Shown: positions 5,882 through 22,432, counted from the stretch's first letter. The stretch: DNA of 23,351 nucleotides from an uncultured Nitrososphaerota archaeon (GCA_964618805.1 CAZUBM010000025.1:1-23351), one strand, 5' to 3'. Numbers and translations are program-made. The notes: generated from the letters alone by a model not told the origin.

Positions 5882-6152
5882 AATACATCTGTTCGGTGAA
5901 ATACGAGGCACCATCAAAGCTAAGCAACCGAACTTTGAGGCTGAAGCAGAGACCTTAGAAGAGTCCCTTTATCGCCTTTGGAAAGTATTTTCTAGCGATG
6001 TTAAGTCCACCCTTTTCAATAAGAAGGGAATCTTAAAACCATGTTTCTTGTTAATGGTCAACAGTAAGGAGATGAAATTTTCCTGGAACTTGAAGCTAAG
6101 ACTCAAGGATAAAGATTGCTCAAAAATCCCTCCTTCTCTCGATGTAGGGTGA
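5865..6152 (+). CDS. MoaD/ThiS (ubiquitin-like beta-grasp) protein, divergent copy without C-terminal GG
   Basis: MPKKFEIHLFGEIR...ETLEESLYRL...LLMVN...KIPPSLDVG. TTG start inferred from the GGGTG RBS and the paralog at 18631. Confidence 0.7.
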   Translation: MPKKFEIHLFGEIRGTIKAKQPNFEAEAETLEESLYRLWKVFSSDVKSTLFNKKGILKPCFLLMVNSKEMKFSWNLKLRLKDKDCSKIPPSLDVG

Positions 6153-7414
6153 AGGCATTGAGGGCAGATATCCTAGTCGTAGGCAGCGGAATTGCTGGGA
6201 TTTCAGCGGCTATTGCTGCCAAAAATACAGATCCAAAAAGAGAGGTGATTTTAATTGGGGAAGAAGAATTCTTATACAGAAGACCTGCAATATTCTCGCT
6301 AATAGATAACAGCTCCCTAGAAGATCTGGCAATATATAGCCCAGATCTCATGACAAAATACAACATAAGATCATTATTTGGAATTAAAGTAAAGGCAATC
6401 AACCTTGAGGATAGGTCGGCAACGCTTGATAATGGTGAAAAGGTAGTTTTTGATAAAGTTGTAATATCAACGGGCGGTAAGCCATTTATCCCTCCAATAG
6501 AGGGTTCCGATATCAAAGGTGTTATTCCCTTCAGGTGCTGTTCGGATGCCCTAAGCATAAGAAGGATGCTAAGTGTTGGGAGCAGATGTGTCATAATAGG
6601 AGCTGGGTTGATAGGAGTCAAGCTTGCTTCTATTCTTCATAAGAAGGGAGTGAAGGTCCTCCTTGTTGAGCTTAAAAATGTCTTATGGACTCTGTTAGAG
6701 CGTCCTTTATCCACTTATGTTAGAGACTTACTTCATTCTAACGGAATTTCAATCATTGAGGGAAAAGAGGTCGAGTCCATAAAAGGTCGGCATCATGTAA
6801 ATTCGGTTGTTATTGATGATAGGAAATATAACGCTAATTTCGTGATCATTACTGCTGGAGTTAGATCTAGAAGTGAAATTGTGATCAATCAACTTAAGTT
6901 GGGAGTTAGGGGGGCTATAGAAACTGACAAATTTATGAAAACATCAATGGATGGCGTATATGCCTGCGGGGACTGTGCTGAAACCATTGATCTGGTTTCA
7001 GGGAAGAAAACCTATAGACCAATTGGAAGCATAGCTTATCAGGCTGGAAAGCTAGCTGGCGCCAATTCAGTTAGAGAGGAGAGAAGATATAATGGATTCC
7101 TCAGGTTACAGGGAGATGATTTTTTGGGAATTTCCATAACATCAATCGGCCTAACTGGAAGTGAGGCCAGGGTTTTGGGAGTAGATTTCAAGGTGCTTCC
7201 TTTGAAGTACAGAGAAGTAAAGTTTGGTATCTACTCCAACCTTTTCAACCGGCCAGGGAAGTTACTTGGGATAGTTGACGCAAAGGAAAGATTAATAGGA
7301 TTTCAGGCAGTAGGGCAGAAATTGTCTAGAAAATCAATCAATTCAATTTCTTCGTTGATATCAGCCGGATGTAACGTGGATGAATTGGAATCTATTGGTT
7401 TAGAACCTGTCTAA
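6149..7414 (+). CDS. FAD-dependent NAD(P)H oxidoreductase (Pyr_redox_2; AorC/rubredoxin-reductase-like)
   Basis: GSGIAG FAD motif, STGG, GAGLIG NAD-binding motif, VYACGDCA. GTG start at 6149 overlaps the MoaD-like TGA (GTGA), as in the paralog at 18921. Confidence 0.92.
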   Translation: MKALRADILVVGSGIAGISAAIAAKNTDPKREVILIGEEEFLYRRPAIFSLIDNSSLEDLAIYSPDLMTKYNIRSLFGIKVKAINLEDRSATLDNGEKVVFDKVVISTGGKPFIPPIEGSDIKGVIPFRCCSDALSIRRMLSVGSRCVIIGAGLIGVKLASILHKKGVKVLLVELKNVLWTLLERPLSTYVRDLLHSNGISIIEGKEVESIKGRHHVNSVVIDDRKYNANFVIITAGVRSRSEIVINQLKLGVRGAIETDKFMKTSMDGVYACGDCAETIDLVSGKKTYRPIGSIAYQAGKLAGANSVREERRYNGFLRLQGDDFLGISITSIGLTGSEARVLGVDFKVLPLKYREVKFGIYSNLFNRPGKLLGIVDAKERLIGFQAVGQKLSRKSINSISSLISAGCNVDELESIGLEPV

Positions 7415-7476: not shown

Positions 7477-8067
7477 CTAAGCTTCTAAGAGCTCTTTAAG
7501 CTTATTAACAAGCTCTGAAATCGATCCAAGCTCAGAAAACTCTGGATAGGCTAGAAAAGGTATCTTTATGTTGTTTGCATCCAGTTCTCTTCTCAAAATT
7601 TCTATGAAGATTCCCTCTCCTCTAACAAACTTCTGCTTTGGAGGCTTCCTTCTGAGTATTTCCTCCTCCAAAAATCCGCCCCATCTTGATCCTATTTCTT
7701 CGTTTGTCCAGTTAACTCCACAAACCGGACTACCATCAGCACCAACGATAGCTAAAACCTTGTAGCCGTTTTTCACATAATCTGAGATCTGAAAGACTAT
7801 TTCTTTGGCTATCCTTTTGCAAAATTCTCGAAAGAAAGGAACGTTATATTGCTCCCTAACCATACCCCATCTCCTTATCCCCCAATACATCATCTCTGGG
7901 CAAGGCATCTGTAATATCCCAATCTCATGCTTAAGCAAAAATTCTACAATCTCAGGTATGGCTCCGGGAGCAATTGCTATTCCAAAGACCTTTGAGTTTT
8001 GGTTTAAGAGACAATGAGCAAGAACAACAATTTTCCTGCTTCTCTTATCCTTTAGATTCATAATCAC
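7477..8067 (-). CDS. TudS-related (DUF523 / CD3072-like) putative [4Fe-4S] thio-nucleobase desulfidase
   Basis: Three Cys-containing motifs typical of DUF523/TudS-like proteins (AHCLLNQN, QMPCPE, GSPVCGV) plus a GxGIF motif near the C-terminus. Confidence 0.8.
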   Translation of the reverse strand: MIMNLKDKRSRKIVVLAHCLLNQNSKVFGIAIAPGAIPEIVEFLLKHEIGILQMPCPEMMYWGIRRWGMVREQYNVPFFREFCKRIAKEIVFQISDYVKNGYKVLAIVGADGSPVCGVNWTNEEIGSRWGGFLEEEILRRKPPKQKFVRGEGIFIEILRRELDANNIKIPFLAYPEFSELGSISELVNKLKELLEA

Positions 8068-8108
8068 TCAATACTTAATACTTCACATCTAACTAATAAT
8101 TCCCTGGT

Positions 8109-9896
8109 ATGATAAAGAGGAGCGATGTAGGTCTGGAAATTGAGTTTATGTCTAAGCTTATAATGGCGGCAACGGGAGAAATTCCTCCAACCCTAAAGAT
8201 CACTGGAGGAATAATTGTAAACGTCCTTACGGGGGAATTAGAGGATGCTGATCTAATATTGTTTGAGGATAGAATAGTTGGTATTGGAAAATCCGTTGAT
8301 TACCCAGAATGCAAGACATTGAATGCTGAAGGTATGTATCTGGTGCCAGGATTAATAGATTCCCATATGCATATTGAAAGCACCTTACTTGTCCCTCAAG
8401 CCTTGGCATGCGTCTTACTTCCACATGGAGTGACTTGTCTTCTTGCCGATCCTCACGAGCTGGCTAATGTCCTTGGGAGTAAGGGAATAAAACTCATAGC
8501 ATCTATGGCTGAAAAAGCTCCTCTCAGAATATACTTCCAGATCCCGTCTAGAGTTCCGACAGCTCCTGATCTTGAAGACTCTGGAGCTGAGTTGAATCTT
8601 AAAGATACCGCTCAGCTCCTGAAAATAGAGAAAGCCGTCTCCTTGGGAGAGCTTAACTACCAGAATCTTCTCTCTGGCAAGAGAATTTACTTGGAGAAGA
8701 TAGCTTTAGCTGAATCTATAGGTAAAATCACTAATGGACATATGGCTGGTGCCTCAGTAAAAGAGATTAATGCCTGTGTGGCGGCTGGTCTCGTAGATGA
8801 CCATGAATGTTTGTCACAGGAAGAAGCTCTAGAGAGACTAAGAAGAGGATGCGCGGTAATGGTAAGGGAGGGCAGCTCTGAGAGAAATCTTGTTGCCATA
8901 CTCTCTAAGATGCAGAAGAAGATTTCAGATATGAGAGGTTTAATGTTCTGCACAGACGATAAGCATCCGGATGATCTCATTTCAGAAGGAGGAGTTGATT
9001 TCAACGTAAAAGAAGCTATAAGGATTGGAGTTGATCCTATAATAGCTATTCAAATGGCTACTATAAATGCAGCAACCCATTTTGGTTTAGACAAAACTTT
9101 AGGAATTCTAGCTCCGCATAGAAAGGCAGATGTAGTTATTCTAAAGGAACTGGAGAGTTTTGAGGTCAACTCTGTAATTTTCGATGGAAAGCTTTTATAT
9201 CATAAAGGGAGGCTCCTTTACTTATACCAAAGAGCGAATATCCCTAGTTGGGCTCTTAGTACAATTAGAGTTAGTCAAGAACTAAGGGCAGTAGATTTAG
9301 TGATAAAAGTTAAGGGAGCAAAGAGAGCAAAGGTCCGCGTCATAAAGGTAATACCTGGTCAGATAGTGAAGAGAGAGATGTGTGAATGGATTTCTGTAAA
9401 GAAAGGGATAGTAACAGCGGACCCAGAAAGAGATCTCCTCCATATAGCAGTTGTTGAGAGGCATAGATGCTTAAAACAGGTTGGAAAGGGATTTATAAGT
9501 GGGTTTGGACTTAAAGAGGGAGCTATAGCATCCTCAATATCTCATGATCATCATAACTTGATTACGGTAGGAACTAACCCTGATGATATGCTCTTAGCCA
9601 TAAGGCGATTAAAGGAGATTGGAGGAGGCTTTGTTGTTGTTAAGTCTGGATCTATACTAGGAGAACTTCCTCTACCATTTGCTGGGTTATTATCACTTGA
9701 ACCAGCTGACAAGGTAGTATCTAAGCTCAAGAGACTCAAGAGAATAGCACAGCTTTTAGGATGCAAATTAAAATCTCCCTTTATGCAATTATCCTTTGTC
9801 TCCCTGCCTACCGTCCCTGAGCTTGGAATAACGAACAGAGGACTTGTAGATTCTAGGAAATTTAAGTTGGTGGATCCTATCCTAGAGCTAGAGTAA
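8109..9896 (+). CDS. ade: Adenine deaminase (amidohydrolase superfamily, Ade/AdeC type)
   Basis: PGLIDSHMHIES, DPHELANV, LGE, NGH, DDHE, REGS, FCTDD metal motifs and the C-terminal domain (VVERH, ASSISHDHHN, LPFAGL). True start may be ATG 8148. Confidence 0.92.
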   Translation: MIKRSDVGLEIEFMSKLIMAATGEIPPTLKITGGIIVNVLTGELEDADLILFEDRIVGIGKSVDYPECKTLNAEGMYLVPGLIDSHMHIESTLLVPQALACVLLPHGVTCLLADPHELANVLGSKGIKLIASMAEKAPLRIYFQIPSRVPTAPDLEDSGAELNLKDTAQLLKIEKAVSLGELNYQNLLSGKRIYLEKIALAESIGKITNGHMAGASVKEINACVAAGLVDDHECLSQEEALERLRRGCAVMVREGSSERNLVAILSKMQKKISDMRGLMFCTDDKHPDDLISEGGVDFNVKEAIRIGVDPIIAIQMATINAATHFGLDKTLGILAPHRKADVVILKELESFEVNSVIFDGKLLYHKGRLLYLYQRANIPSWALSTIRVSQELRAVDLVIKVKGAKRAKVRVIKVIPGQIVKREMCEWISVKKGIVTADPERDLLHIAVVERHRCLKQVGKGFISGFGLKEGAIASSISHDHHNLITVGTNPDDMLLAIRRLKEIGGGFVVVKSGSILGELPLPFAGLLSLEPADKVVSKLKRLKRIAQLLGCKLKSPFMQLSFVSLPTVPELGITNRGLVDSRKFKLVDPILELE

Positions 9897-9927
9897 TAGA
9901 GAGTAATTATTTAGGGAAAATTTAGCG

Positions 9928-10401
9928 CTAAGCCTCTCGAAGTAATTTTGCTACTCTGCTTATTCCCTCCTTCCTCCTTTGAATTACTTCTTTAGTTATT
10001 TCAAGAAACTCCAAAGCTCCTGTGGGACAAGCCTTTACACATTTAGCTTCTCCTTTGCATAAATCACACTTTATTATTTTTCTCTCAAAGAAGTTAAGCC
10101 CCATCCCACCAAAAGGGCAACAGTAGATACAGTACTTACAGCCTATACATGCTTTTTCATTTACAAGAACTAGTTCCTTAGAATCATCTCTAAAAATAGC
10201 TCCTTGTGGACAAGCAGCAGCACAGGGGGGATCTTGGCATTGGAGACACAAAATAGGGAAATTTAGACCTTTATCCAATCTAACAACTGTTATCCTAGAT
10301 AGAGAGGGTATAAACGCTCCCTGATGTTCAGCAGAACATACTAGCTCACATATCCTACATCCAGTGCATAGCTCCGGATTTATAACTATGACTTTGCCCA
10401 T
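9928..10401 (-). CDS. 4x[4Fe-4S] dicluster protein (AOR-associated)
   Basis: CTGCRICELVC, CLQCQDPPCAAAC, CIGCKYCIYCC, CDLCKGEAKCVKAC. Last gene of the AOR operon. Confidence 0.93.
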   Translation of the reverse strand: MGKVIVINPELCTGCRICELVCSAEHQGAFIPSLSRITVVRLDKGLNFPILCLQCQDPPCAAACPQGAIFRDDSKELVLVNEKACIGCKYCIYCCPFGGMGLNFFERKIIKCDLCKGEAKCVKACPTGALEFLEITKEVIQRRKEGISRVAKLLREA

Positions 10402-10406
10402 TTCAG

Positions 10407-10895
10407 CTATAACCTTTTAATACCTACTACCGTGAGTCCAGAGAGCCTCTCAACACTTATTCTTCTCTTCTTTAGCGTAGCTCTATCTACCCTAATAAAA
10501 TCAAGTGCTCCGGTAGGACATGCTTTGACACACTCTGGATCCCCGCCGCAGAGATCACACTTTATTGGGAGGAGAGTATTGGGATCTATCGAGATTGCCC
10601 CACTAGGACAGAAGAGGAAACACATCTTGCATCCAATACATTTGTTTAAGTCAAGTTTGACAATTCCATCCTCCCAGTCCTTATATAAGGCATGGGTTGG
10701 ACAAGCAGCAACACATGGGGGATCCTCACATTGTGAGCAGAGTATTGGAATGTTAGGTCTCTCTCCCTCCTGTTTAATTACCTTTACTCTAGATCTAGTT
10801 ACGGAGAAAGCGCCAGTATTATGTTCAGAACATACCAGCTCACATATCCTACATCCAGTGCATAGTTCCGGGAGGACAACCAAAATCTTATGCAA
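10407..10895 (-). CDS. 4x[4Fe-4S] dicluster protein (AOR-associated)
   Basis: CTGCRICELVC, CSQCEDPPCVAAC, CIGCKMCFLFC, CDLCGGDPECVKAC. Starts 2 nt after the AOR stop, with a GGTGA RBS. Confidence 0.93.
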   Translation of the reverse strand: MHKILVVLPELCTGCRICELVCSEHNTGAFSVTRSRVKVIKQEGERPNIPILCSQCEDPPCVAACPTHALYKDWEDGIVKLDLNKCIGCKMCFLFCPSGAISIDPNTLLPIKCDLCGGDPECVKACPTGALDFIRVDRATLKKRRISVERLSGLTVVGIKRL

Positions 10896-10897
10896 TT

Positions 10898-12796
10898 CTA
10901 CTCACCTGAATACTCTATTCCAAGTTCCTGCAACTTCTCTTTAGTTGGAAGCCCTGTTTTAACATCCCAATTCCTAGCCTCATAGTATTCATCAAGCATT
11001 GGTTCTAGTTTGACTACTTGTCCCTTAAATGGCCCCTCAGGCATAGGCTCCTTTAGAAATCTATCAGGAAGTGTGTCGTGCTTTCTATTAAAGCCCCTTT
11101 TAGCATTAAAGAGCCTTTCTATGTTCACTATCCTTTCACCGATTTTAAGAACATCCTTCTTTGTGAGAGATATTCCTGTAACGGCATGTATGAGCCTAGC
11201 TAATGCTTCAGGAAAGAAAAGTGCGTGCTTTATCACTTCTCTTGAGACTGGAGTTCTAGCGGTATTATAAACACATATCTCTAGAGAATCGTGGACGGCT
11301 CGAACGTTTTCATGCCAAGCAACTAACCTTCCCTTCCCCTTAACTCCAAAAAGATCAACAGCTTCCTCTGAACCGAACATATCCTTGGCTAAATCAGGAG
11401 GAAAGTGGAATTCTCCTATTGGGAAAGCTCTGAGGTGGTCAGCTCCTCTTGTTGAAACTGCAAATGCTAATGCCCATGCTTTTGGTCCTCTAGGATCTAC
11501 GTTTATTATCTCAACCCCTTTAACTTCCGGCGCAAACTTCTGCGCTTCTTTACCTATTCTTTCTGCCATTTTCTTAACTCCTTGGGCAAGAAAATCTCCA
11601 AATCCCTCCCTTTTCGCTATTTTGTGGACTAACTCTATAATTAGCTCAGAGTCCCCCCATTTTATCTCCATGCCTTCGGTATCTTCTTTTGTTAAAAGAC
11701 CCTTTTCATAACACTCCATGGCGAATGCGATCGAACCAGATGTGGATATGGTATCTAAGCCATATTTGTTACAGAGTTCATGAGCTACTATTATGGAGTC
11801 AAAGTCGCTGTTCCCACATCTAGATCCAAAACCGCATATTGTCTCGTACTCTAAGCCCTCTCCTATGGTTTCACTATAAGGACCTCCTTCTATCTTATAC
11901 CAATGGCTGCAGTGGAGAGGACAGCCAAAACATGCTACCGATCTTATGGCATATTTCCTCATAAATACATCGGCGCTTATCTTTTCAGCGTCTTCAAATG
12001 TTCCCTTCTGAAAGTTTCTAGTTGGAAGGGCTCCCATTTGGTTGTACATCATAATTAGAGACGTTGTTCCTTCTGTCGAGAATGCCTTATAGTAGGCCTC
12101 ATCCATCATCAAAGCCTCGTGATTTTTCTCAACGACTTCCCTTAGTTCCCTAGGATCTGCTACTCTTACGCCCTTAGTTCCCCTTACAGCAACAGCTTTG
12201 AGCTTCTTAGATCCCATAACAGCTCCTATTCCGCATCTAGCTGCAGCTCTAGCTTTATCATTTATAACGCAAGCATATAATACGAGATTCTCCCCCGCTG
12301 GACCTATTGATGCTATATTTATGTCTGGATCCCCTACCTCCTCCCTTATTATGTCCTCCGTCTCCCAAGTAGTTCTTCCCCAAAGGTGAGATGCGTCCCT
12401 AATTTCGACTACATCATCATCTATCCATAAGTAAACCGGCTTACTGGATCTTCCTTCTATTACTACAGCATCATATCCAGCATACTTGAGCATAGCCCCC
12501 CATGAACCTCCTGCATTCCCATCTCCAATAGTACCGCTTAGAGGGGAAAGAGCGCTCACAGTGTACCGATTTGATCCAGGAGCTCTTGTACCGTTAGCTG
12601 GTCCTATCCCAAAGATTACCTTGTTTTCAGGCCCGAGTGGATTAATTCCTACTTCAAGTTCATCATACAGTATTTTAGAGTTGAGACCCCTTCCACCTAA
12701 GTAATTTAGTGCTAGTTTTTTATCTAAGGGCTGTCTCCTTATCGTCCCATTTGTAAGATTAACACGTAAAACAGTACCCGCCCAACCATAGAACAT
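10898..12796 (-). CDS. aor: Tungsten-pterin aldehyde:ferredoxin oxidoreductase family protein (AOR/WOR)
   Basis: 632 aa with YLGGRG, SIGPAGENLV, AARCGIGAVMGSKKLKA, CFGCPLHC, EYET, GLDTIS, STRGADH, DSLEIC, ERLFN, DTLPDRF and YYEARNWD. Confidence 0.96.
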   Translation of the reverse strand: MFYGWAGTVLRVNLTNGTIRRQPLDKKLALNYLGGRGLNSKILYDELEVGINPLGPENKVIFGIGPANGTRAPGSNRYTVSALSPLSGTIGDGNAGGSWGAMLKYAGYDAVVIEGRSSKPVYLWIDDDVVEIRDASHLWGRTTWETEDIIREEVGDPDINIASIGPAGENLVLYACVINDKARAAARCGIGAVMGSKKLKAVAVRGTKGVRVADPRELREVVEKNHEALMMDEAYYKAFSTEGTTSLIMMYNQMGALPTRNFQKGTFEDAEKISADVFMRKYAIRSVACFGCPLHCSHWYKIEGGPYSETIGEGLEYETICGFGSRCGNSDFDSIIVAHELCNKYGLDTISTSGSIAFAMECYEKGLLTKEDTEGMEIKWGDSELIIELVHKIAKREGFGDFLAQGVKKMAERIGKEAQKFAPEVKGVEIINVDPRGPKAWALAFAVSTRGADHLRAFPIGEFHFPPDLAKDMFGSEEAVDLFGVKGKGRLVAWHENVRAVHDSLEICVYNTARTPVSREVIKHALFFPEALARLIHAVTGISLTKKDVLKIGERIVNIERLFNAKRGFNRKHDTLPDRFLKEPMPEGPFKGQVVKLEPMLDEYYEARNWDVKTGLPTKEKLQELGIEYSGE

Positions 12797-12814
12797 ACGG
12801 GATAATGTCTCAAC

Positions 12815-12836
12815 TTCTTATATATATTTTTTTAAA
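12815..12836 (-). promoter_or_regulatory. Putative BRE/TATA box for a leaderless aor transcript
   Basis: Minus strand reads TTTAAAAAAATATATATAAG about 21-40 nt upstream of the aor ATG, and no SD precedes the ATG. Confidence 0.55.
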
Positions 12837-12843
12837 GCTGAGT

Positions 12844-13782
12844 TCATTCCCTTCTGTAGGGAACTCCTAGAGAGGCTGGTGCCTCTGCCTTCCTCGCTAC
12901 ACCTAAGAGTGTAAGTATTGTGATAATATAAGGTAACATTAGCAAAAATTGATATGGAATACCAAATCCCATTGTTTGTAAACGCTTCTGGAGAGCATCG
13001 ACAAAACCAAAAAGCAAGGCGCCAGAAAAGGTTCTATAGGGATTCCATTTGCCAAAATATACTATGGCTATTGCTATAAATCCTTTTCCTAGAGTCATGC
13101 CTTCAATGAACATGCTTAATTGAGCTAAGGATAAGTACGCCCCAGCAAGCCCAGCCAAGCCTCCTTCTATCATCAAGCACATGTAACGTATTCGATAGAC
13201 ATCTACTCCTAAGGTATCTGCTGCTTTTGGATTCTCTCCTACCGCCCTTATTCTGAGACCAAAATCAGTTCTATAAAGGACTATAGAACTCAGAAACACT
13301 AGAATAAACATAAGGTACACGAGAACATTGTGATTGAAAAGTATCGCTCCTAGAAACGGCATCTCACTTAGTAAAGGGATAGAGATGGTATCAAATCCTT
13401 TAACTGTGGGAGGCAAAGTTCGAACCCCAAATATCATTCTGTAAAGAAAGCCTGAAAGTCCCCAGCCAAGCAGCCAAAGGGCCATTCCGCTAACTACCTG
13501 ATTGGCCATAAACCTTATAGTGATTAATCCATGAATAAGAGCCATGATTATACCTATTAGAATAGAAAGGAGTACTCCTACGAGAAGAGACCCAGTAAAG
13601 TAAGTCCCAAGGAAGCCTAACAGGGCACCCATTAGCATAATTCCCTCTACACCAAGGTTTATTATGCCAGAGTTCTCTGAGAATATCTCTCCAAGAGCTG
13701 CTAATGCTAGAGGAGTGGCCATTCTTATAGCTGCAGAGAATAGTCCAACAATTAGCGCTTGGTTTATAAATTTTAGACTCAT
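12844..13782 (-). CDS. Nucleoside ABC transporter permease, subunit 2
   Basis: ATPLALAALGEIFSENSGIINLGVEG, RAVGENPKAADTLGV, GKGFIAIAIVYFGKWNP, LPYIITIL and APASLGVPY, typical of RnsD/NupC-type permeases. Confidence 0.93.
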   Translation of the reverse strand: MSLKFINQALIVGLFSAAIRMATPLALAALGEIFSENSGIINLGVEGIMLMGALLGFLGTYFTGSLLVGVLLSILIGIIMALIHGLITIRFMANQVVSGMALWLLGWGLSGFLYRMIFGVRTLPPTVKGFDTISIPLLSEMPFLGAILFNHNVLVYLMFILVFLSSIVLYRTDFGLRIRAVGENPKAADTLGVDVYRIRYMCLMIEGGLAGLAGAYLSLAQLSMFIEGMTLGKGFIAIAIVYFGKWNPYRTFSGALLFGFVDALQKRLQTMGFGIPYQFLLMLPYIITILTLLGVARKAEAPASLGVPYRRE

Positions 13783-14825
13783 GCCCTCCCCCTCTTAGTT
13801 ATAAACTCGCTGCTGACTAGAAAAAGCATCATTAAGCCTTCTATGCAGTAAACTAGAGTAGTCGGTATTCCCGTTGTCCTTTGCATCATCTCAGCGCCTA
13901 CGAAAAGAGTGCCAAAGAATAATGACGCAAGAACTACACCTAAAGGATGAAGTCTCCCGACTAGAGCTACCGGGATTCCCAGATATCCATATCCTCCCGA
14001 GAGCGGCGTATCTAGAAGCCTCCTGTGAACTCCACAAACCTCTATCATCCCAGCTAATCCGGCTAAACCCCCACTCAAAATCATAGCGATAATAATACTT
14101 CTAAAGACATTAATTCCAGCACAGTATGCTGCTTCGGGATTTAAGCCTACAGCTCTTATGTAATAACCCAGTGGAGTTTTCCACAGTAGAATATAGGTTA
14201 AGAGAGCGCATAGAAGGGCAATTAATACTCCCGCATGTGATCGACTGCCCTTCACAAGTTTTGGTAAGAGAGCCGATTTTGGCAGAACTGGAGAGAGGGG
14301 ATATCCGTATGCCTTTGGATCCATCATAGGTCCATGAACCAAGTAGCTTAAGAGAAAGGTGGCTATGTAATTCATCATCAGTGTAACTATAACCTCATTC
14401 ACTTCAAACTTAGCTTTTAGTAGTCCTGGTATAAACGCCCAGAAAGCACCTCCTAAGAAGCCAACTAACATCGCTAAGAGGAGCAATAGCGGGCCTCCCC
14501 TGTCTCCTATGGCTAGTGTAACCCAAGTAACTACTATCGTAGCTATTATCATTTGTCCTTCTGCTCCTATGTTCCATACATTACATTTGAAGGCCACCGT
14601 CATGCTAAGACTGACCAGTAAGAGAGGAGTAGCTTTCACTAGACTCTCCGTTATCCCATAGGTACTACCTAAAGCCCCAGATAAGAGGGATTTATAAGCA
14701 AAAAGTGGGTTAACTCCAACAGCTAGGAGTAAGATCGAATTAACTATAAGAGCTCCTATTATAGCTATTAATGGAATTAAAACAGATGTACTAAAACCTT
14801 CTCTCTCTATAGACACTAAGAGCAA
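13779..14825 (-). CDS. Nucleoside ABC transporter permease, subunit 1
   Basis: WNIGAEGQ, VNEVIVTLMMNY, RAVGLNPEAA, SGGLAGLAG, GYGYLGI. ATGA overlap with the next gene. Confidence 0.93.
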   Translation of the reverse strand: MLLVSIEREGFSTSVLIPLIAIIGALIVNSILLLAVGVNPLFAYKSLLSGALGSTYGITESLVKATPLLLVSLSMTVAFKCNVWNIGAEGQMIIATIVVTWVTLAIGDRGGPLLLLLAMLVGFLGGAFWAFIPGLLKAKFEVNEVIVTLMMNYIATFLLSYLVHGPMMDPKAYGYPLSPVLPKSALLPKLVKGSRSHAGVLIALLCALLTYILLWKTPLGYYIRAVGLNPEAAYCAGINVFRSIIIAMILSGGLAGLAGMIEVCGVHRRLLDTPLSGGYGYLGIPVALVGRLHPLGVVLASLFFGTLFVGAEMMQRTTGIPTTLVYCIEGLMMLFLVSSEFITKRGRA

Positions 14826-14853
14826 AACCTCCCAAAAAGAGAAAGGATGGGTT

Positions 14854-15882
14854 TTATCCGGCTTTTGGTGGTATCATTGCAGTGATGTTAAGTTGACCTG
14901 AGATTATCTGCTGCTTAACCTGCTCTATAGTATCTCTCACATCCTTGGGAACTGCTGGATTGAATGGAGATAAGGTTATGCCCCCATTAGCAAAGGATGC
15001 CCAGTAAAATTTCTTATCGAACTTGCCATCCTCTCTCCAATCATTCATTATCTGCTCAAATAGCGGACCCCAGGAGTATACTACGCAGCTGAGACATTTT
15101 TCAGGACAAAGAGAACTTTGATCAACTGGAACTCCCATGAACCAGAATCCTTTCTCTTTGGCTGCTTCAACTACTCCCAATCCAAGACCATCTCCACTAT
15201 GCCAAATCACATCTACTCCCATTTCGAACATACTTATAGCTGCTTCTTTAGCTCCCTCAGCATCTCTCCAATCACCAGTATAATGCTCGTATATCTCTAT
15301 ATCTGGATTAATCGATTTTGCTCCTAACTTAAATCCTTCATGCCCTCTGTAGATCTCCACCACGTCGCATCCTCCTATTACTCCAACTTTTCCAGTCTTA
15401 CTCATTAGCGCTGCTAGAACCCCCATTAAGTAGCCTCCTTCCTCCAATCTTACATCATAAACAATGCTATTTTCAACAGTCTTATATCCGGTTCCCAAGA
15501 GAAATGCTGTATGTGGATATTCAGGGGCTACCGTAACTATAGGCTCCATGAACTGGAACCCATGACCTATTATCATATCATAACCCTTCTCTGCGTAATC
15601 TCTTAGCGCTGGTTCTATTTTTGCGACTTCATAAACCTCTTCCGTGTATGTTATATCTATAGCCTCTCCATACTTATCTTTAAGCCACATAATTCCTTCA
15701 TAAGCAGCTTGATTCCACGATACATCATCAATTCTACCTGGAAGGATCAGAGCAATTCTAAAAGGAGCAGCAGGAGGAGCTTTAGGTCTTGTTAGGACAT
15801 AAATGGCAGCTATAGCAACTAAAATGATCAATAGGATAACTAATAAGGTCTTCTTTTCTATTCTAAGACACCTCCATCCCAT
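14854..15882 (-). CDS. BMP-family (PnrA/TmpC-like) nucleoside-binding protein with N-terminal membrane anchor
   Basis: N-terminal TM helix, DDVSWNQAAYEG, GYDMIIGHGFQF, EEGGYLMGVLAALMSKTGKVGVIGG, GFKLGAK, GVPVDQ. Confidence 0.92.
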   Translation of the reverse strand: MGWRCLRIEKKTLLVILLIILVAIAAIYVLTRPKAPPAAPFRIALILPGRIDDVSWNQAAYEGIMWLKDKYGEAIDITYTEEVYEVAKIEPALRDYAEKGYDMIIGHGFQFMEPIVTVAPEYPHTAFLLGTGYKTVENSIVYDVRLEEGGYLMGVLAALMSKTGKVGVIGGCDVVEIYRGHEGFKLGAKSINPDIEIYEHYTGDWRDAEGAKEAAISMFEMGVDVIWHSGDGLGLGVVEAAKEKGFWFMGVPVDQSSLCPEKCLSCVVYSWGPLFEQIMNDWREDGKFDKKFYWASFANGGITLSPFNPAVPKDVRDTIEQVKQQIISGQLNITAMIPPKAG

Positions 15883-15945
15883 ACTTTGCTACCTGTTTCT
15901 TATAATCTTTACTTACTTTGGGATGAGTGAATATTCAGTTTAGAG

Positions 15946-17529
15946 CTAACTAGTGACTCCCGCCATGAGTAAGCCTATGCGATCTATATCTGCCTCTTCA
16001 CTTAACATTTCTCCCACAATTCTCCCCTCATACATCACTAATATTCTGTCACTTATCATTAGAATCTCATCTAAATCCCCAGAAATCAAGAGAATAGCAG
16101 CTCCTCTCTCCTTTTGCTCTAATATTTTTGATCTTATAAATTCTGTCGCTCCTACATCAAGTCCCATAGTTGGTTGGACAGCTATTATTAGCTTTGGAGT
16201 CTGAGTCAATTCTCTAGCTAATATCATCCTTTGGATATTTCCTCCAGAGAGCTGATTTGCTGGGGATGATGCGCTAACAGTCTTGATGTTGTATTCTTTG
16301 ACCAACTGATTCGTATAATTATAAATCTTTTCTTTATTAAGAAAAAGAGGCTTGCTAACAGGAAGGAACCATCCATCTGCGAAGGTACGTAAGAACTTTT
16401 CTTTTAGTACCAGATTCTCTGCTACAGAAAACTCTCCGATTAGACCTCTTTTAAGCCTTTCCTCTGGAATATAGGCAACTCCTTGTTTAAGAATCTGTCT
16501 AGGAGGAGAATTAGTAATATCCTTTCCTTCTATCAATACCTTGCCTTTTATTGCTTTTCTTAACCCAACTATAACTTCTGCAAGTTCTCTTTGGCCATTA
16601 CCAGCAACGCCAGCTATACCCAATATTTCTCCTTGATGAATAGCAAAAGAAACCCCTTTTAGAGCTACCAATCCTTGATCGCTCATAGTCATCAAATCCT
16701 TTACTTCAAGCACTACTTTGCCGATCTTCGTTGGTTTTCTTCTTATCGCAAAGAGAACTTCTCTTCCAACCATCATTTTTGCAAGTTCATGCTTGTCTGT
16801 ATCTTTAGTATCCACCCTGCCAATGACTCTTCCTCTTCTTAACACAGTAACTCTATCGCTTACTCTCATAACCTCGTCCAATTTGTGAGTTATGAATATT
16901 ATTGATTTTCCCTCCTTTTTCATAGATTTAAGTGTTCTAAAGAGGCTTTCTGTCTCTTGAGGAGTTAGCACAGAGGTGGGCTCATCTAAGATCAGGATAT
17001 CTGCTCCCCTATATAGAATTTTTAGAATCTCAACCCTTTGCTGCTCTCCAGCTGAGAGTTGCCATATCTTTGCTCTTGGATTGACCTTTAAGCCATATTT
17101 TTCTGAAAGCTCAATTATTTTCTTTTCTATTTCAACAAGGTCCAATAAAGGCCATTTCGGACCTCTTTGTCCGAGTACTATGTTCTCAGCTACAGTAAAC
17201 TTAGGAACTAACATAAAATGTTGGTGAACCATACCTATACCAAGTCTTATTGCATCTCTTGGGGACTCTATTTGCGCTTTTTTACCTCTTATGTAAATTT
17301 CGCCTTCATCAGGCTTGTAGAGACCATAAAGGATGTTCATAAGTGTTGTCTTTCCAGCTCCATTCTCACCCAAAAGAGCATGTATCTCTCCCGTTCTAAG
17401 TTCGAAATCTATATGATCATTGGCTACTATGCCGGGAAACTTTTTTACAATTCCTTTCATCTCTACTGCAATATCTTCAGTTCTTTTCGTTTTCTCAGGT
17501 ATCTCTGAGTTTACATTATTATGCATCAA
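15946..17529 (-). CDS. Two-domain nucleoside/sugar ABC ATPase (intact)
   Basis: GENGAGKT, LSAGE, ILDEPT, ITHKL; second domain GVAGNGQ, LSGGN, ISGDLDE. Confidence 0.95.
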   Translation of the reverse strand: MMHNNVNSEIPEKTKRTEDIAVEMKGIVKKFPGIVANDHIDFELRTGEIHALLGENGAGKTTLMNILYGLYKPDEGEIYIRGKKAQIESPRDAIRLGIGMVHQHFMLVPKFTVAENIVLGQRGPKWPLLDLVEIEKKIIELSEKYGLKVNPRAKIWQLSAGEQQRVEILKILYRGADILILDEPTSVLTPQETESLFRTLKSMKKEGKSIIFITHKLDEVMRVSDRVTVLRRGRVIGRVDTKDTDKHELAKMMVGREVLFAIRRKPTKIGKVVLEVKDLMTMSDQGLVALKGVSFAIHQGEILGIAGVAGNGQRELAEVIVGLRKAIKGKVLIEGKDITNSPPRQILKQGVAYIPEERLKRGLIGEFSVAENLVLKEKFLRTFADGWFLPVSKPLFLNKEKIYNYTNQLVKEYNIKTVSASSPANQLSGGNIQRMILARELTQTPKLIIAVQPTMGLDVGATEFIRSKILEQKERGAAILLISGDLDEILMISDRILVMYEGRIVGEMLSEEADIDRIGLLMAGVTS

Positions 17530-17840
17530 GGAGGTTATGAGTCCTTAGCAAAATAAAAATTCTCTTTGGATGTATTACTTTCAATTCGCATGGTTTCTGT
17601 TCATTTTCTTGTTTATTCTAATTAAGAGAAAGTTACTCTATGAAAAATATCGTACAATTTGCTCCAGCATTAGAAATTATGACAAGCTAAGGAGAGGGGA
17701 AAATTCCTATAGAGAGATCGTTTATATCACGAGGAGAAAATATGATAAAGCAGATCAGCGAGAAAGCGATAATTAATACATAGATAAAGCCGTAAAGTTT
17801 TAGATCATAGGACAGGAACGGTAATTGTACTATGTTAAAA

Positions 17841-18239
17841 TTAAGGTAAGTCTTCAACTATCTTAAGACATTCTGCAGGGCACCACTCAATGCAAGAACC
17901 ACAGAGCACACATTTTATTGCAACCTTCTTTGTTGGATGTATTTTTATCCCGCCGTAGGGACAAGCTTTTACACATTCACTACATCCCACGCAATTTATC
18001 TCGTTTGCCATAATGATACCCCTAGAATCTCGATAAATCGCTCCTGTCGAACAAGCTTCAATACATGGCGCATTTTGACAGTTTTTACATACTAAAAGTT
18101 GATCTAAATGACCACGGCTTACCACTTTTATCCTAGCTCTATTAAGATCTAGAACCCTATCAAAAGTAAATGAGCAAACAAGTTCGCATAACTTGCATCC
18201 AGAGCATTCGAGTGGATTTGCATAAATATGTCTGGGCAA
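17841..18239 (-). CDS. 4x[4Fe-4S] dicluster protein, short form without C-terminal helix
   Basis: CSGCKLCELVC, CKNCQNAPCIEAC, CVGCSECVKAC, CVLCGSCIEWC. TTG start after GAGGTG. Confidence 0.92.
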   Translation of the reverse strand: MPRHIYANPLECSGCKLCELVCSFTFDRVLDLNRARIKVVSRGHLDQLLVCKNCQNAPCIEACSTGAIYRDSRGIIMANEINCVGCSECVKACPYGGIKIHPTKKVAIKCVLCGSCIEWCPAECLKIVEDLP

Positions 18240-18409
18240 TCTAGCACCTCACTAAATTGTTAATCATATGCGTGTTTGGAAAGGATCTATCCACTTTCTG
18301 GGTTATCTTATCTAGGGACATATGATGTCAGATTTTGAGATTAATATTTGCTAATGTCTCATTGGAGTATGCTTGAATGAAATTGGTTTTTCGCTGGGTT
18401 TAATCTTAG

Positions 18410-18536
18410 TGGGAAGATCAGCTCAATCAGGCTAGAGATATTCTTTAAGGACCTCTTCTTCATTATGTTGAAGATAGTAACGCAAACGTACTCTGTGGGT
18501 TTGTCTATGCAGTACTTGACGCACCCTGGAACTCAT
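18410..18536 (-). pseudogene. Internally deleted relic of a 4Fe-4S gene paralogous to 68-571
   Basis: ATG AGT TCC AGG GTG (MSSRV) is joined out of frame to PGCVKYCIDKPTEYVCVTIFNIMKKRSLKNISSLIELIFP, compared with PECVKYCVEKAIEFVPVTVFNVIKKKRSLEKITRLIELVLP. Upstream DNA 18526-18585 aligns with 561-621. Confidence 0.8.
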
Positions 18537-18630
18537 GGACTTCACCGCAAACTAGGAGCTCATTTATTTAGGAAAAATTAATCTTTATGTGCCCCTGAAA
18601 CTTCCTAAGCTCCAGCTGCGGGTGCAAAGA

Positions 18631-18924
18631 TTGCCAAAAAAGTTCGAAGTACACCTTTTCGGCAGGGTTAGAGATGTGATCAAAGCTAAGAAGCTGAAGC
18701 TCGAAGTTGAGGTTGAGGTCGAAACCCTTGAGCAGCTGCTGCACCACCTCTGGAAGTTACTTCCCAAAGATGCTAGATCCATTCTATTCGATGAAGAAGG
18801 AGATTTGAAACCTTTTTTCTTGGTTATAGTCGATGATAGAGAGGTAAGGCTTCCAAGAGACCTTAAGCTCGAGCTTAAAGATGGGGCATCGGTTAAGATC
18901 CTTCCTCCCATAGGAGCAGGGTGA
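18631..18924 (+). CDS. MoaD/ThiS (ubiquitin-like) protein ending in GAG rather than GG
   Basis: MPKKFEVHLFGRVRD...TLEQLLHHL...FLVIVDDREV...LKDGASVKILPPIGAG. Start TTG 18631 chosen from the GGGTG RBS. Confidence 0.85.
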   Translation: MPKKFEVHLFGRVRDVIKAKKLKLEVEVEVETLEQLLHHLWKLLPKDARSILFDEEGDLKPFFLVIVDDREVRLPRDLKLELKDGASVKILPPIGAG

Positions 18925-20192
18925 AGAGGTTGAGGAGAACTGACATCCTAGTTATTGGAGGGGGAACTGCAGGGATCTCTGCTGCAATTGCTGCTAAGAC
19001 AACCGACCCAAAAAAGGAAGTGACGTTAGTTGGAGAGGAACCTTTTCCCTATAGGAGGCCCTCCATATTCTCTTTAATAGAAGGGGAATCTTTGGAGGAT
19101 TTGGCCATCTTCGGACCTAATTGCTTAGCGGAATACGGCATAAAATCTCTCTTCGGAGCTAAAATAAAGGCTCTTGACCTTGAAGATCGATTAGCGAGAT
19201 TTGAAGATGGTAAGAAGATATCCTTCGAAAAAGCTGTGATAGCTACAGGAGGAGAGCCCTTCGTTCCCCCGGTGGAGGGCTCAAGCATGAATGGCGTTTT
19301 CTCCCTTAGGAGCTACTCTGACGCCTTAAGAATAAGGAAGATGGCGCATGCTGGGGCTAGGTGCTTCATAGTCGGGGCTGGCCTGATAGGGGTTAAGCTC
19401 GCCTCCATTCTCCATAAGAGAGGGGTGAAGGTCACTCTCGTTGAGCTGAAAAAGGTTCTTTGGACACTTTTAGAGGAGCCGTTGTCGGAGTTTGTAAGAG
19501 ATCTGCTCATTTCCAACGGGATTTCGGTTGTTGAAGGGCAAGGAATCGAATCGATAATGGGCCAAGAGCATGTAAGCTCGGTTAAATTGAGTGGTAAGAG
19601 GTATAATGCTGATTTCGTGGTTTTCGTCACCGGAGTTAGGCCAAGGGTTGAAGTTATAGCTGATCAACTGAAATTTGGCGTGAGAGGGGCCATAGAAACC
19701 GATCAGATGATGAGAACATCCGTAGAAGGCGTTTATGCGTGCGGTGACTGCTCCGAAACCATAGATCTAATTTCAGGGATGAAAACATACAGACCAATAG
19801 GAAGCATAGCCTATCGGGCTGGAATTATTGCTGGAGGGAACTTAGGAGGTGAGGAAAGGTCATACGGTGGATTCCTCAGGTTGCAGGGGGATGAGTTCTT
19901 GGGAACCTCTGTAACATCGGTCGGCTTGACAGGAGCGGAAGCTAGAGCTTTAGGAATTAGCTTCAAGGTGTTACCCCTGAAACAAGCTCAAAGCTTGAAG
20001 ATTGGCATATGTTCTGGCCTCTTTGAGCCAGATGCTAAGTTCCTAGGGATATTGGATGGCAAGGAAAGGCTGATTGGATTTCAAGCGGTTGGCCACAAGC
20101 TCTCAAGAAAGGCAATTCATTCGATCTCTTCCCTAATATCATCTAAATCTAAATTGGAAGAGTTAAGATCTATAGGATTAGAACCCACTTAG
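18921..20192 (+). CDS. FAD-dependent NAD(P)H oxidoreductase (AorC/rubredoxin-reductase-like), paralog of 6149-7414
   Basis: GGGTAG, ATGG, GAGLIG, VYACGDCS. Long near-identical peptide stretches with the first copy (GAGLIGVKLASILHK, KTYRPIGSIAY). Confidence 0.93.
   Translation: MKRLRRTDILVIGGGTAGISAAIAAKTTDPKKEVTLVGEEPFPYRRPSIFSLIEGESLEDLAIFGPNCLAEYGIKSLFGAKIKALDLEDRLARFEDGKKISFEKAVIATGGEPFVPPVEGSSMNGVFSLRSYSDALRIRKMAHAGARCFIVGAGLIGVKLASILHKRGVKVTLVELKKVLWTLLEEPLSEFVRDLLISNGISVVEGQGIESIMGQEHVSSVKLSGKRYNADFVVFVTGVRPRVEVIADQLKFGVRGAIETDQMMRTSVEGVYACGDCSETIDLISGMKTYRPIGSIAYRAGIIAGGNLGGEERSYGGFLRLQGDEFLGTSVTSVGLTGAEARALGISFKVLPLKQAQSLKIGICSGLFEPDAKFLGILDGKERLIGFQAVGHKLSRKAIHSISSLISSKSKLEELRSIGLEPT
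20148..20192 (+). repeat. Direct repeat copy 1 (3' end of the FAD oxidoreductase gene)
   Basis: 37/45 identical to 21506-21550 by manual alignment. Confidence 0.75.
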
Positions 20193-20337: not shown

Positions 20338-20706
20338 ATGGGGGATGTGGGACATCATGCAAGGTTAGCTAAAGAAAAAAGAGCTGCAGCCTTGGACGAG
20401 TATCAAAAAGGAAGATACACTGTGGTTGGTGATTTGGTCCTAAAAGCAGTAGAACAAGCGATTGAAGCAGCTGCTTCAAAAGAAGGTATGCACTTTCACT
20501 TAAATCCGAGGACAGCACATGCTAGAAGGACAACTTGGACAAAGGAGAGATTCCCGAACATTGCTGCAGATCTAGATGTGGTCTGGGGAGCCTACGGAGA
20601 TCTTGGATATGACGGATTGAATGGAAAGAGAGCTAGAGAAGCAATTGAGGCCATGGAGAGGATAATAAATGAAATCGAAAGAAAAACTGGAATCAGACTT
20701 AAGTAG
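20338..20706 (+). CDS. HEPN-domain protein (putative toxin/partner of the MNT)
   Basis: 122 aa, helical, with A..EY.KGRY....LVLKAVEQAIEA and a PRTAH loop. Overlaps the downstream MNT gene. Confidence 0.72.
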   Translation: MGDVGHHARLAKEKRAAALDEYQKGRYTVVGDLVLKAVEQAIEAAASKEGMHFHLNPRTAHARRTTWTKERFPNIAADLDVVWGAYGDLGYDGLNGKRAREAIEAMERIINEIERKTGIRLK

Positions 20707-21253
20707 GATAGTAAACGCCATAATAGGCGTAGAAGGAGTCATAGCTGTGATTCTCTTTGGAAGCAGGGCAAAGGGAACCTACGACGAGTACTCAGACTAC
20801 GACCTTCTCGTTGTTTTCGAGGACGACGAGCTTATGTGGAGGAACCGTAGGAAGCTCTACGAAAACGTTGGGAAGCTGGGCCTTTTTACCCAAGTTCTTG
20901 CAAGGAGCATGAGAGAGCTGAGAGAGAGCACAGATCCAACCTTTTTGCGCAGCATATTCGAGCAAGGGATAACCCTTTACATGAGATACCCTTTGAAGGC
21001 CCCAGCATTCCTTCAAGAACTCAGACCAATGGCCATAGTGAGATACAACCTCAAGAGCTTAAATCAGAAGGAAAAGATGAGGGTGATTTATCGCCTGTAC
21101 GGGAAAGGAAGATTAAAGGGAGTCGTTCAAAGGAATGGTGGTAGAAGGCTTGGAGATGGATGTTTTTTGATCCCTGAAGAAGGTCTAGAAGAGGTCTTAG
21201 ATCTTTTAAAGCATTATAGCATTGAATTTGAGGTAATGAGAGTGTACGCTTAG
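20669..21253 (+). CDS. Minimal nucleotidyltransferase (MNT, Pol-beta superfamily) with extra C-terminal domain
   Basis: ILFGSRAKGTYDEYSDYDLLVV is the GSx10DxD motif. About 85 aa extend beyond the normal MNT end (IFEQGITLY). Confidence 0.88.
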   Translation: MKSKEKLESDLSRIVNAIIGVEGVIAVILFGSRAKGTYDEYSDYDLLVVFEDDELMWRNRRKLYENVGKLGLFTQVLARSMRELRESTDPTFLRSIFEQGITLYMRYPLKAPAFLQELRPMAIVRYNLKSLNQKEKMRVIYRLYGKGRLKGVVQRNGGRRLGDGCFLIPEEGLEEVLDLLKHYSIEFEVMRVYA

Positions 21254-22421: not shown

Positions 22422-22432
22422 AGGTGCTTCAG

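Follow-up and report, generated by a model that had tools for sequence, protein, structure and literature searches.

A predicted purine-base importer, an adenine deaminase and an AOR-family gene in one block of an uncultured Nitrososphaerota archaeon: a possible entry module for oxygen-free purine catabolism

The window considered here is a stretch of 23,351 nucleotides from an uncultured Nitrososphaerota archaeon, and it constitutes the whole of contig C25 in a 2.18-Mb genome (G000) that is 93.7% complete and holds 14 genes of the aldehyde oxidoreductase (AOR) family. Its genes have been identified by open reading frame (ORF) listing together with Pfam and NCBIfam scans. The block under study, at positions 7477-20192, brings together one AOR gene, an ATP-binding cassette (ABC) importer with a BMP-family binding protein, an adenine deaminase (Ade) and several ferredoxins (Fd). 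Seven co-oriented genes form a minus-strand run from 17529 to 9928: an ABC ATPase with two nucleotide-binding domains (15946-17529), the BMP-family binding protein with an N-terminal membrane anchor (14854-15882; Bmp domain, 196.7 bits), two BPD_transp_2 permeases of the same importer (13779-14825 and 12844-13782), the AOR/WOR-family catalytic subunit (10898-12796; AFOR_N, 279.7 bits; AFOR_C, 479.7 bits) and two four-cluster polyferredoxins. The first of these, the AorA-like Fd1 (10407-10895), lies 2 bp past the AOR stop codon, and the second, Fd2 (9928-10401; identified in Pfam and NCBIfam), follows after a further 5 bp. Permease and AOR are separated by a spacer of 47 bp (12797-12843, minus strand), in which an A/T run, TTTAAAAAAATATATATAA, located about 18-37 nt 5' of the AOR start codon, may be an archaeal TATA box, so that a promoter of its own is conceivable for the AOR. 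The Ade gene (8109-9896, plus strand; TIGR01178, 537.9 bits against a cut-off of 472.5; Adenine_deam_C, 207.8 bits; Amidohydro_1) converges on this run, and a gene for a putative [4Fe-4S] desulfidase of the CD3072 TudS-related family (7477-8067, minus strand; NF045597, 174.6 bits against a cut-off of 130; zero Pfam matches at E<=10) diverges from Ade. On the other side, a third ferredoxin, Fd3 (17841-18239, minus strand), is divergent from a plus-strand pair comprising a small protein of the MoaD/ThiS fold (18589-18924), for which the family matches are weak (ThiS, 30 bits; moaD_arch, 44.5 bits, below the cut-off of 49.5), and an FAD/NAD(P)H oxidoreductase of the CoADR/Nox/ferredoxin-reductase superfamily (18921-20192; Pyr_redox_2). 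All genes of the block are unbroken, and Rfam and tRNA scans of the window returned zero RNA genes. A first-pass annotation of this DNA had named these genes and reported the 47-bp gap and intact reading frames, all of which have been confirmed; the FAD and MoaD-like genes that it counted with the AOR are present but stand outside the AOR operon.

The catalytic subunit aligns with the AOR of Pyrococcus furiosus (1aor) at 485 bits over residues 3-627, showing two insertions against it, and with AorB (8c0z) at 433 bits. The [4Fe-4S] ligands of the P. furiosus enzyme, Cys288, Cys291, Cys295 and Cys494 (a numbering checked on the alignment), are matched by cysteine at all four positions. The AOR second shell has been described as comprising Glu313, His448, Tyr312 and Tyr452 with a conserved Thr or Ser, Tyr452 being a proton-relay residue that is replaced by Trp in the inactive WOR4 and by His in WOR5/ASOR (accessible sections of PMC12096430). 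In the window AOR, Glu318, His454, Tyr317 and Thr244 correspond to Glu313, His448, Tyr312 and Thr243 and are conserved, while Tyr452 has become Phe458; the protein thus departs from the full residue set of AOR sensu stricto. Tyr occurs at this position in 21 of 120 AORs compared and in none of the 40 that have N-heterocycle genes as neighbours, where 23 Leu, 10 Phe and 7 other residues are found; within this genome a single paralogue, C9:48456, has kept it. Loss of Tyr452 was considered as a marker of non-aldehyde chemistry and set aside as not decisive, since aminotransferase-linked AORs lack the tyrosine as well: the residue marks divergence and does not identify the substrate. Two further AORs have been noted. 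A tungsten-dependent aldehyde oxidoreductase of Haloferax volcanii, WOR83 (PDB 9q1t), matches the window AOR at 324 bits; no paper on it turned up in the literature searched, and nothing was found that relates it to the PDB entry numbered directly after it, 9q1u ('Basic membrane protein A'). A metagenome AOR 51% identical to the window AOR (L171, 10001-14746) has Gly for Glu313 and Leu for Tyr452 and is followed by a class-III aminotransferase and then a PreA-like gene.

The redox partners encoded around this subunit also recall known AOR complexes. Among solved structures, Fd1 matches best to Fe-S subunits from such complexes (9mqx_E, 127 bits; AorA, 8c0z_C, 116 bits). The FAD protein is closest to CoADR/Nox enzymes (147 bits), with AorC (8c0z_E) at 114.6 bits, and its N-terminus (...PYRRPSIFSL...) has no Cys at what is presumably the redox-Cys position of the CoADR/Nox group. 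Its gene lies about 5 kb from the AOR on the other strand; a related genome, G019, has an FAD gene within a single run of ferredoxins, AOR, BMP and ABC genes. AorABC of Aromatoleum, together with the MoaD-like AorD/E, constitutes an NAD-reducing AOR (accessible text of PMC6365974), and the window resembles this system in the catalytic family, the AorA-like ferredoxin beside the AOR, an FAD protein of the AorC superfamily and its MoaD-like genes, that at 18589-18924 occupying a position comparable to AorD/AorE. The two differ in that the window unit possesses two polyferredoxins, while its FAD and MoaD-like genes are off the operon and more loosely arranged; its FAD protein is nearer to CoADR/Nox than to AorC, and Phe stands in place of Tyr452. 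The partners are also distinct, being a purine importer and a deaminase in the window and aromatic amino-acid catabolism in Aromatoleum.

The first-pass annotation had described the importer as a nucleoside system, a reading that is not borne out by comparison with solved structures. The window BMP protein matches best to 3s99 of Brucella (150 bits) and to AtzT of Pseudomonas sp. ADP (148.5 bits), with PnrA/TmpC at just 71 bits. AtzT has been reported to bind guanine with a Kd of 0.11 uM and adenine with 2.5 uM, with a value of >8 mM for GTP, and 3s99 has been modelled with adenine (both in the accessible text of PMC6834077). Trp56 and Trp205 of the window protein correspond to the stacking pair Tyr45/Trp194 of AtzT and Glu176 to Glu165, so that the aromatic pair and the base-binding Glu have been kept. 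The matches are nonetheless distant, the archaeal protein is membrane-anchored, and three AtzT contacts, Ser97, Asn218 and Asn220, have changed to Gly, Ser and Asp; the last of these, Asp231, aligns with Asn220, a site at which 3s99 also has Asp. The genome contains three BMP genes in all. The one on contig C16 is likewise 3s99/AtzT-like (222 and 205 bits) and is followed by a ferredoxin-AOR pair, whereas the one on C5 is 4pev/PnrA-like (277 and 126 bits; AtzT, 47 bits) and is surrounded by genes for a nucleoside phosphorylase (PNP), a PfkB kinase, a thymidylate kinase and a phosphoribosyl pyrophosphate (PRPP)-synthetase-like protein. Taken together, the structure matches and this internal contrast argue for a base-type rather than a nucleoside importer, and the nucleoside reading has been rejected on these grounds; the system looks like a purine-base importer for which adenine is the best guess as ligand. 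Both base-type BMP genes adjoin AORs and the nucleoside-type gene does not: two of the three lie within 3 kb of one of the 14 AORs, an outcome reached by random placement in 0.74% of 200,000 trials, which puts the linkage above chance. In one relative (L086; G005:C22, ~7600-16450), the BMP-ABC system that most resembles that of the window has no AOR beside it; its neighbours there are an MtmB-like methyltransferase, a B12-binding protein and a corrinoid activase of the RACo type.

A set of genes suited to purine breakdown is found on contig C16. On its minus strand lie a carbamoyltransferase, a pyridoxal phosphate (PLP) decarboxylase and SsnA, and these are followed on the plus strand by an ABC ATPase, two permeases, the BMP gene, a ferredoxin and an AOR. 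Beyond these come a minus-strand gene of 268 aa, a PreA-like DHO_dh protein with two [4Fe-4S] motifs, a ferredoxin, a second AOR and a hydantoinase/allantoinase-like amidohydrolase, with a third AOR about 14 kb further at the contig end. The SsnA is a true member of its family (573 bits against a cut-off of 444). The 268-aa gene (L083, 13587-14393), placed in the interval between AOR and PreA-like gene, has no Pfam or NCBIfam match; it is 52% identical to a gene in L092 and could encode an accessory factor. Comparable groupings occur on two other contigs: C6:51552-59729 carries a PreA-like gene, an AOR, a ferredoxin, a hydantoinase-like gene on the minus strand, a further AOR and an SsnA-like gene, and C13:22716-30055 carries two SsnA-like amidohydrolases, a ferredoxin and a divergent AOR without His448. 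Four of the nine full-length SsnA-like amidohydrolases in the genome lie at most 6 kb from an AOR (binomial p ~0.003, or 0.02 with the C13 pair counted once).

The enzyme that would ordinarily be sought in such a setting has no match here. The first-pass annotation had reported no xanthine dehydrogenase (XDH) genes in the window, which has been confirmed, and the check has been extended to the genome: PF02738, the XDH family, has 0 matches in the window and 0 in the whole 93.7%-complete assembly. In the genus to which the organism belongs, PF02738 was found in 0 of 5 genomes and true SsnA in 4 of 5; of the 40 species genomes of the class, 11 have true SsnA and 6 have PF02738. XDH and related purine hydroxylases, Mo enzymes that often depend on Se as well, carry out the job proposed for the AOR, namely the (de)hydroxylation of purine ring carbons, and enzymes of the xanthine oxidase (XO) family oxidise aldehydes as well as purines. 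The two families differ in cofactors, XDH holding Mo with molybdopterin cytosine dinucleotide or molybdopterin (MCD/MPT), 2Fe-2S clusters and FAD and the AOR family W-bis-MPT and a 4Fe-4S cluster, and their folds are unrelated.

The C16 cluster looks, by gene content, like an archaeal counterpart of the reductive uric-acid (2,8-dioxopurine) pathway described in 2025 from E. coli, C. difficile and C. sporogenes. Within the accessible text of that preprint (10.1101/2025.05.19.654654), SsnA is presented as the most identifiable marker of the pathway, whose parts are XdhD, YgfK or a PF01180-type UacX, SsnA, HyuA, YgeW/YqeA or UacY, YgeY and YgeX; the clostridial UacX is thought to require reduced ferredoxin, and the pathway as published yields no free aldehyde. 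A companion preprint stresses selenium-dependent molybdenum hydroxylases (accessible text of 10.1101/2025.04.24.650524), and the words 'tungsten', 'archaea' and 'transporter' are absent from the main texts of the two (10.1101/2025.05.19.654654; 10.1101/2025.04.24.650524). The likeness consists in the clustering of SsnA, a UacX-like reductase, a hydantoinase-like enzyme and a carbamoyltransferase on C16, and in the presence of Ade and BMP-ABC genes of the window's kind in the bacterial clusters. The archaeal version differs in having no XDH-family (XdhD/DOPDH) match, with ferredoxin-AOR pairs in the cluster instead, and a PLP decarboxylase where YgeX might be expected; the window itself represents the uptake, deaminase and AOR part only, without ring-opening genes.

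Comparison with other genomes covered 239 loci, made up of 79 and 80 AOR loci and of 80 SsnA loci, the latter being the 80 nearest to the archaeal SsnA. Among the 80 SsnA loci, an AOR is present in 7 and an XDH large subunit in 26, never both, with 47 having neither; Ade homologues are found in 15 and BMP genes in 12. In L098 an Ade 62% identical to that of the window stands beside SsnA. The bacterial locus L107 (Caldisericales) combines a three-subunit XDH, confirmed by Pfam, with SsnA, Ade, a hydantoinase, an M20 peptidase, a carbamoyltransferase, a carbamate kinase and a BMP-ABC importer. These counts, together with L107, indicate that Ade and the BMP-ABC importer are regular members of bacterial purine clusters, and it is suggestive, albeit across few independent lineages, that in the archaeal clusters a ferredoxin-AOR pair would take the place that XDH occupies in L107. 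Clusters of BMP followed by ferredoxin-AOR were found in at least 8 of 31 related genomes, belonging to four genera (G000, G003, G005, G007, G009, G012, G015 and G019); the number was read from coordinates among the matches listed, and with 53 AOR matches not listed it is a lower bound. In G019 the genes form one co-oriented run of Fd-Fd-AOR-FAD-BMP-ATPase-permease-permease, the permeases being 70-78% identical to the left permeases of the window (2396-4391), with a figure of 69% also recorded for the first of these (2396-3457).

The closest orthologue of the window AOR among genome contigs is that of L001 (69%), a 35-kb contig from a Bathyarchaeia metagenome-assembled genome; the next reaches 52%, and the best in metagenome contigs 51 and 50%. 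With no orthologue closer than L001, conserved linkage of this AOR lineage is a matter of one other genome. There, Ade (46%), BMP (72%) and permeases lie beside the AOR on the other strand, and the locus further encodes PreA-like, MoaD-like and PyrK/GltD-like proteins, a hydrolase resembling dihydropyrimidinase and another AOR. In the genome in question (G048, 1.5 Mb), AOR paralogues number about 20 and SsnA-like amidohydrolases 12, with recurrent pairing of the two on contigs C7, C15, C31 and C57; 4 of the 12 lie within about 4 kb of an AOR, and PF02738 has zero matches. Near the 52% identical AOR, in L002, SsnA-like genes and a DHO_dh-like gene are present.

The phylogeny of the family has been examined in two trees, a FastTree analysis of 120 AORs (122 matches, of which 2 were dropped for stop codons or a length of <520 aa) and an IQ-TREE analysis of 52 (50 hand-picked from the 120 and 2 from L171). 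Both recover a core clade rich in neighbours of the SsnA, PreA or hydantoinase kind: 26 of 32 rows in the former (SH-like 95), drawn from several archaeal and bacterial phyla, and 14 of 18 members in the latter (SH-aLRT 99). The AOR that starts at the left edge of the window (55 to 1, continuing on C9) falls inside this clade. The first-pass annotation had proposed testing whether the clade of the window AOR is recurrently neighboured by BMP-ABC, ade and DUF523 genes; in the trees the protein lies outside the core clade, and L001, its one close orthologue, keeps both BMP-ABC and Ade.

On these observations, the block probably belongs to the uptake and catabolism of purine bases. A fuller mechanism, in which it provides the entry to an oxygen-free breakdown of purines linked to ferredoxin, with the AOR acting on the purine ring, is advanced tentatively. 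The BMP-type importer would take up a purine base, most plausibly adenine, and the adjoining deaminase would convert it to hypoxanthine. The AOR paralogue would then work on the purine ring and not on a free aldehyde, the most likely chemistry being C-H hydroxylation of the ring of hypoxanthine or a related oxopurine, or the reverse dehydroxylation. Electrons may pass through the [4Fe-4S] cluster of the AOR to the two four-cluster polyferredoxins; the separately encoded ferredoxin and FAD oxidoreductase could connect this pool to NAD(P), and the MoaD-like protein could act in cofactor maturation, as proposed for AorD/E. The set encoded on C16 (SsnA, PreA-like, hydantoinase-like and carbamoyltransferase) would finally reduce and open the ring and break it down. 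The identities, arrangement and conservation of the genes and the lack of an XDH-family match are observed; the importer ligand, any ring chemistry by an AOR, the electron path and the tungsten content are inferred.

Ring chemistry is favoured because it assigns an enzyme to a step that would lack one in a genome without a match to the XDH family, because it explains the several diverged AORs per cluster and the repeated pairing of AORs with amidohydrolases or deaminases, and because it fits the position of XDH in bacterial clusters. With no XDH-family gene found in the genome, a non-classical role for AOR in purine catabolism becomes a serious possibility. A bolder version is possible, though doubtful: that a branch of the AOR/WOR family comprises enzymes for the C-H hydroxylation and dehydroxylation of purines (N-heterocycles) rather than aldehyde oxidoreductases, and that these enzymes, wired through polyferredoxins, replace the Mo/Se XDH family in the 2,8-dioxopurine route of anaerobic archaea and certain bacteria. 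Different paralogues might then serve different ring positions, and hydroxylations could pay for dehydroxylation and ring reduction. On this view hypoxanthine would be the substrate of the window AOR, supplied by adenine import and deamination, and the FAD module would act as an overflow to NAD(P).

Several observations weigh against assigning ring chemistry to this AOR. We know of no AOR-family activity on a purine. Neither 'purine' nor 'heterocycl' occurs in the accessible text of a 2025 review of obligate tungstoenzymes (PMC12096430). Within the literature searched (subscription journals lying outside it), no link was found between AOR-family enzymes and SsnA or purine breakdown, and nothing joined AOR, Bathyarchaeia and an ABC transporter. 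The window itself contains no SsnA, PreA or hydantoinase gene; its AOR and that of L001 lie outside the core clade in both trees, and in the FastTree group to which they belong 27 of 34 rows have a ferredoxin as the only neighbour. A genome that is 93.7% complete leaves the absence of XDH unproven, and the seven AOR-bearing SsnA loci, six from relatives in a single class and one from a bacterium (L162), amount to few independent events. Some neighbours were probably mislabelled, since the PreA/PyrK/Hyu/carbamoyltransferase tblastn labels in L005 and the PreA/PyrK labels in L019 and L025 are likely to represent pyrD/pyrK/pyrB/pyrC biosynthesis genes, and the count of AORs in an N-heterocycle context (40 of 120) therefore holds a few false positives. 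Co-transcription of importer and AOR is not assured either, given that the ABC genes of L001 are on the strand opposite the AOR and that the spacer in the window carries a TATA-like run. The conserved equivalents of Glu313, His448, Tyr312 and Thr243 are compatible with aldehyde oxidation, and the lack of Tyr452 is shared with AORs beside aminotransferases.

The strongest alternative accepts the nucleobase block as real and assigns to the AOR a small aldehyde or semialdehyde late in the pathway, such as malonic semialdehyde formed from beta-alanine by an aminotransferase, with the low-potential electrons returning through the polyferredoxins to a ferredoxin-dependent ring reductase of the PreA/UacX type. 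It would account for the closeness of the protein to P. furiosus AOR and for its conserved residues, as close AOR relatives have been shown to act on aldehydes only. It is also the arrangement suggested by L171 and L172, where the order is ferredoxin, AOR (51 and 50% identical to the window AOR), class-III aminotransferase and PreA-like gene, L171 continuing with a further AOR, a ferredoxin and a BMP gene; in L015, too, a class-III aminotransferase comes right behind the AOR. An aminotransferase in this position is the layout expected for semialdehyde oxidation. A PreA-like gene only a few bases past the AOR, as in L032, L063, L098 and L002, suits electron coupling of this kind, as does the ferredoxin requirement suggested for clostridial UacX. 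In the genome studied here, however, none of the AOR clusters includes an aminotransferase, the three class-III matches being on C1, C2 and C4, and the pathway as published offers no free aldehyde to be oxidised. A single aldehyde would also leave unexplained why a cluster has three AORs, conserved yet diverged, and why AORs pair with amidohydrolases several times in one genome; and as the XDH family has no match here, purine hydroxylation would be left without a candidate enzyme. An aldehyde substrate is judged somewhat less likely than ring chemistry. The first-pass proposal that this AOR acts in base catabolism has gained a tie to purine bases and a family setting amid N-heterocycle genes in several phyla, with an aldehyde substrate as a live alternative.

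A second alternative denies any shared pathway: the AOR would be a broad-range aldehyde enzyme of a peptide fermenter, the ABC importer and Ade would belong to purine salvage, and their proximity would reflect inherited synteny in a compact genome. Only L001 among the 159 AOR loci from elsewhere shares the arrangement of the window, some chance neighbours are expected for 14 AOR genes in 2.18 Mb, the AOR lies outside the core clade and the spacer may carry its own promoter. Such a reading must nevertheless contend with the placement of two of three BMP genes, both of the purine-base type, beside AORs (p ~0.007), with the BMP/ferredoxin-AOR clusters of at least 8 of 31 related genomes in four genera, with the single co-oriented run of G019, and with the persistence of Ade, BMP-ABC and AOR together in L001 despite rearrangement. 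Coincidental neighbours are hard to reconcile with these recurrences, and the absence of a shared pathway is judged quite improbable. The thio-base scheme of the first-pass annotation, in which thiolated bases, once imported, would lose their sulfur to the TudS-related protein and then be oxidised by the AOR, can be dismissed as highly improbable: the protein passes the CD3072 cut-off and TudS enzymes do desulfurise thiouracil and 4-thio-UMP (accessible text of PMC10611767), but the scheme depends on the adjacency of a gene that is divergently oriented, has a homologue in 0 of the 239 loci from other genomes (L001 included) and a sole paralogue, on C17, that is not near an AOR, and the known TudS substrates are pyrimidines while the importer looks purine-specific.

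The left part of the window contains a partial counterpart of the block. An AOR gene begins on the minus strand at its very edge (1-55; first 18 codons, MARLGGYAGFYLEIDLSS) and runs off the contig, the rest being found at C9:82540-84441; bases 1-55 recur exactly at the very end of contig C9, and since the break lies inside a multi-copy gene, a join between C9 and C25 is likely but not certain. Directly upstream of this AOR is an AorA-like four-cluster polyferredoxin (68-604, minus strand; 46% identical to Fd1). The plus strand then carries an ABC ATPase with two nucleotide-binding domains (833-2408; frameshift at ~1437-1444) and two permeases (2396-3457 and 3457-4391, the second with a frameshift near 3505), and no binding-protein gene was found after permease 2. 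Because of the frameshifts and this missing gene, the left ABC system is probably a decaying copy. Further along are a ferredoxin paralogous to Fd3 (4400-4891, minus strand; 58% identity), a MoaD-like small protein (5856-6152, plus strand; 49% identical to 18589-18924, with one very weak family match) and an FAD/NAD(P)-type oxidoreductase (6116-7414, plus strand; 66% identical to 18921-20192), so that the trio of ferredoxin and MoaD-like/FAD pair is a true paralogous duplicate of that on the right. The recurrence at the left of the window noted in the first-pass annotation is therefore real, albeit degraded, with the AOR cut at the contig end, two of the ABC genes frameshifted and the BMP gene lacking. 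Recent duplication and decay in the region are also indicated by a short polyferredoxin C-terminus remnant lying between Fd3 and the MoaD-like gene (18410-18529, minus strand), which shares 59% identity with residues 135-175 of the protein encoded at 68-604, together with the two frameshifts of the left ABC genes.

A second exact 55-bp overlap of contig ends exists between the end of C16 and the start of C6, and both overlaps fall inside AOR genes. This suggests that C9 joins C25 and C16 joins C6, the assembly having presumably broken at k-mers common to AOR paralogues. At the right end of the window, an overlapping HEPN-like gene (a weak match, E 0.017) and a nucleotidyltransferase (Polbeta/NTP_transf_2) at 20338-21253 look like a HEPN/MNT toxin-antitoxin pair, with paralogues at C6:38906-39812 and on C38. 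A PIN-domain gene (22644-23063), the start of which is overlapped by a 79-aa ORF without a family match, is likely to form a VapBC-type pair with it (22424-23063), and a 164-aa ORF on the minus strand (21634-22128) has no family match.

The AOR family is known for the conversion of aldehydes, aliphatic sulfonates and benzoyl-CoA, and to our knowledge purine ring hydroxylation has so far been attributed only to Mo enzymes of the xanthine oxidase family. The window contributes to this subject a predicted purine-base importer and adenine deaminase as an entry module, and an AOR from outside the core clade; the genome adds an internal control in the form of a nucleoside-type BMP system without an AOR. 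Even if the AOR proves to be an oxidiser of a pathway aldehyde, the block would define a type of purine-base ABC importer and a ferredoxin-coupled variant of the pathway. Should AOR chemistry on the purine ring be true, it would constitute a new reaction class for the family and would explain how hot-spring and sediment archaea may ferment purines without XDH. It would also extend the anaerobic purine pathway described from gut bacteria in 2025 to the archaea, with tungsten and ferredoxin wiring, and would provide a testable function for many of the unexplained multi-copy AOR genes of uncultured archaea.

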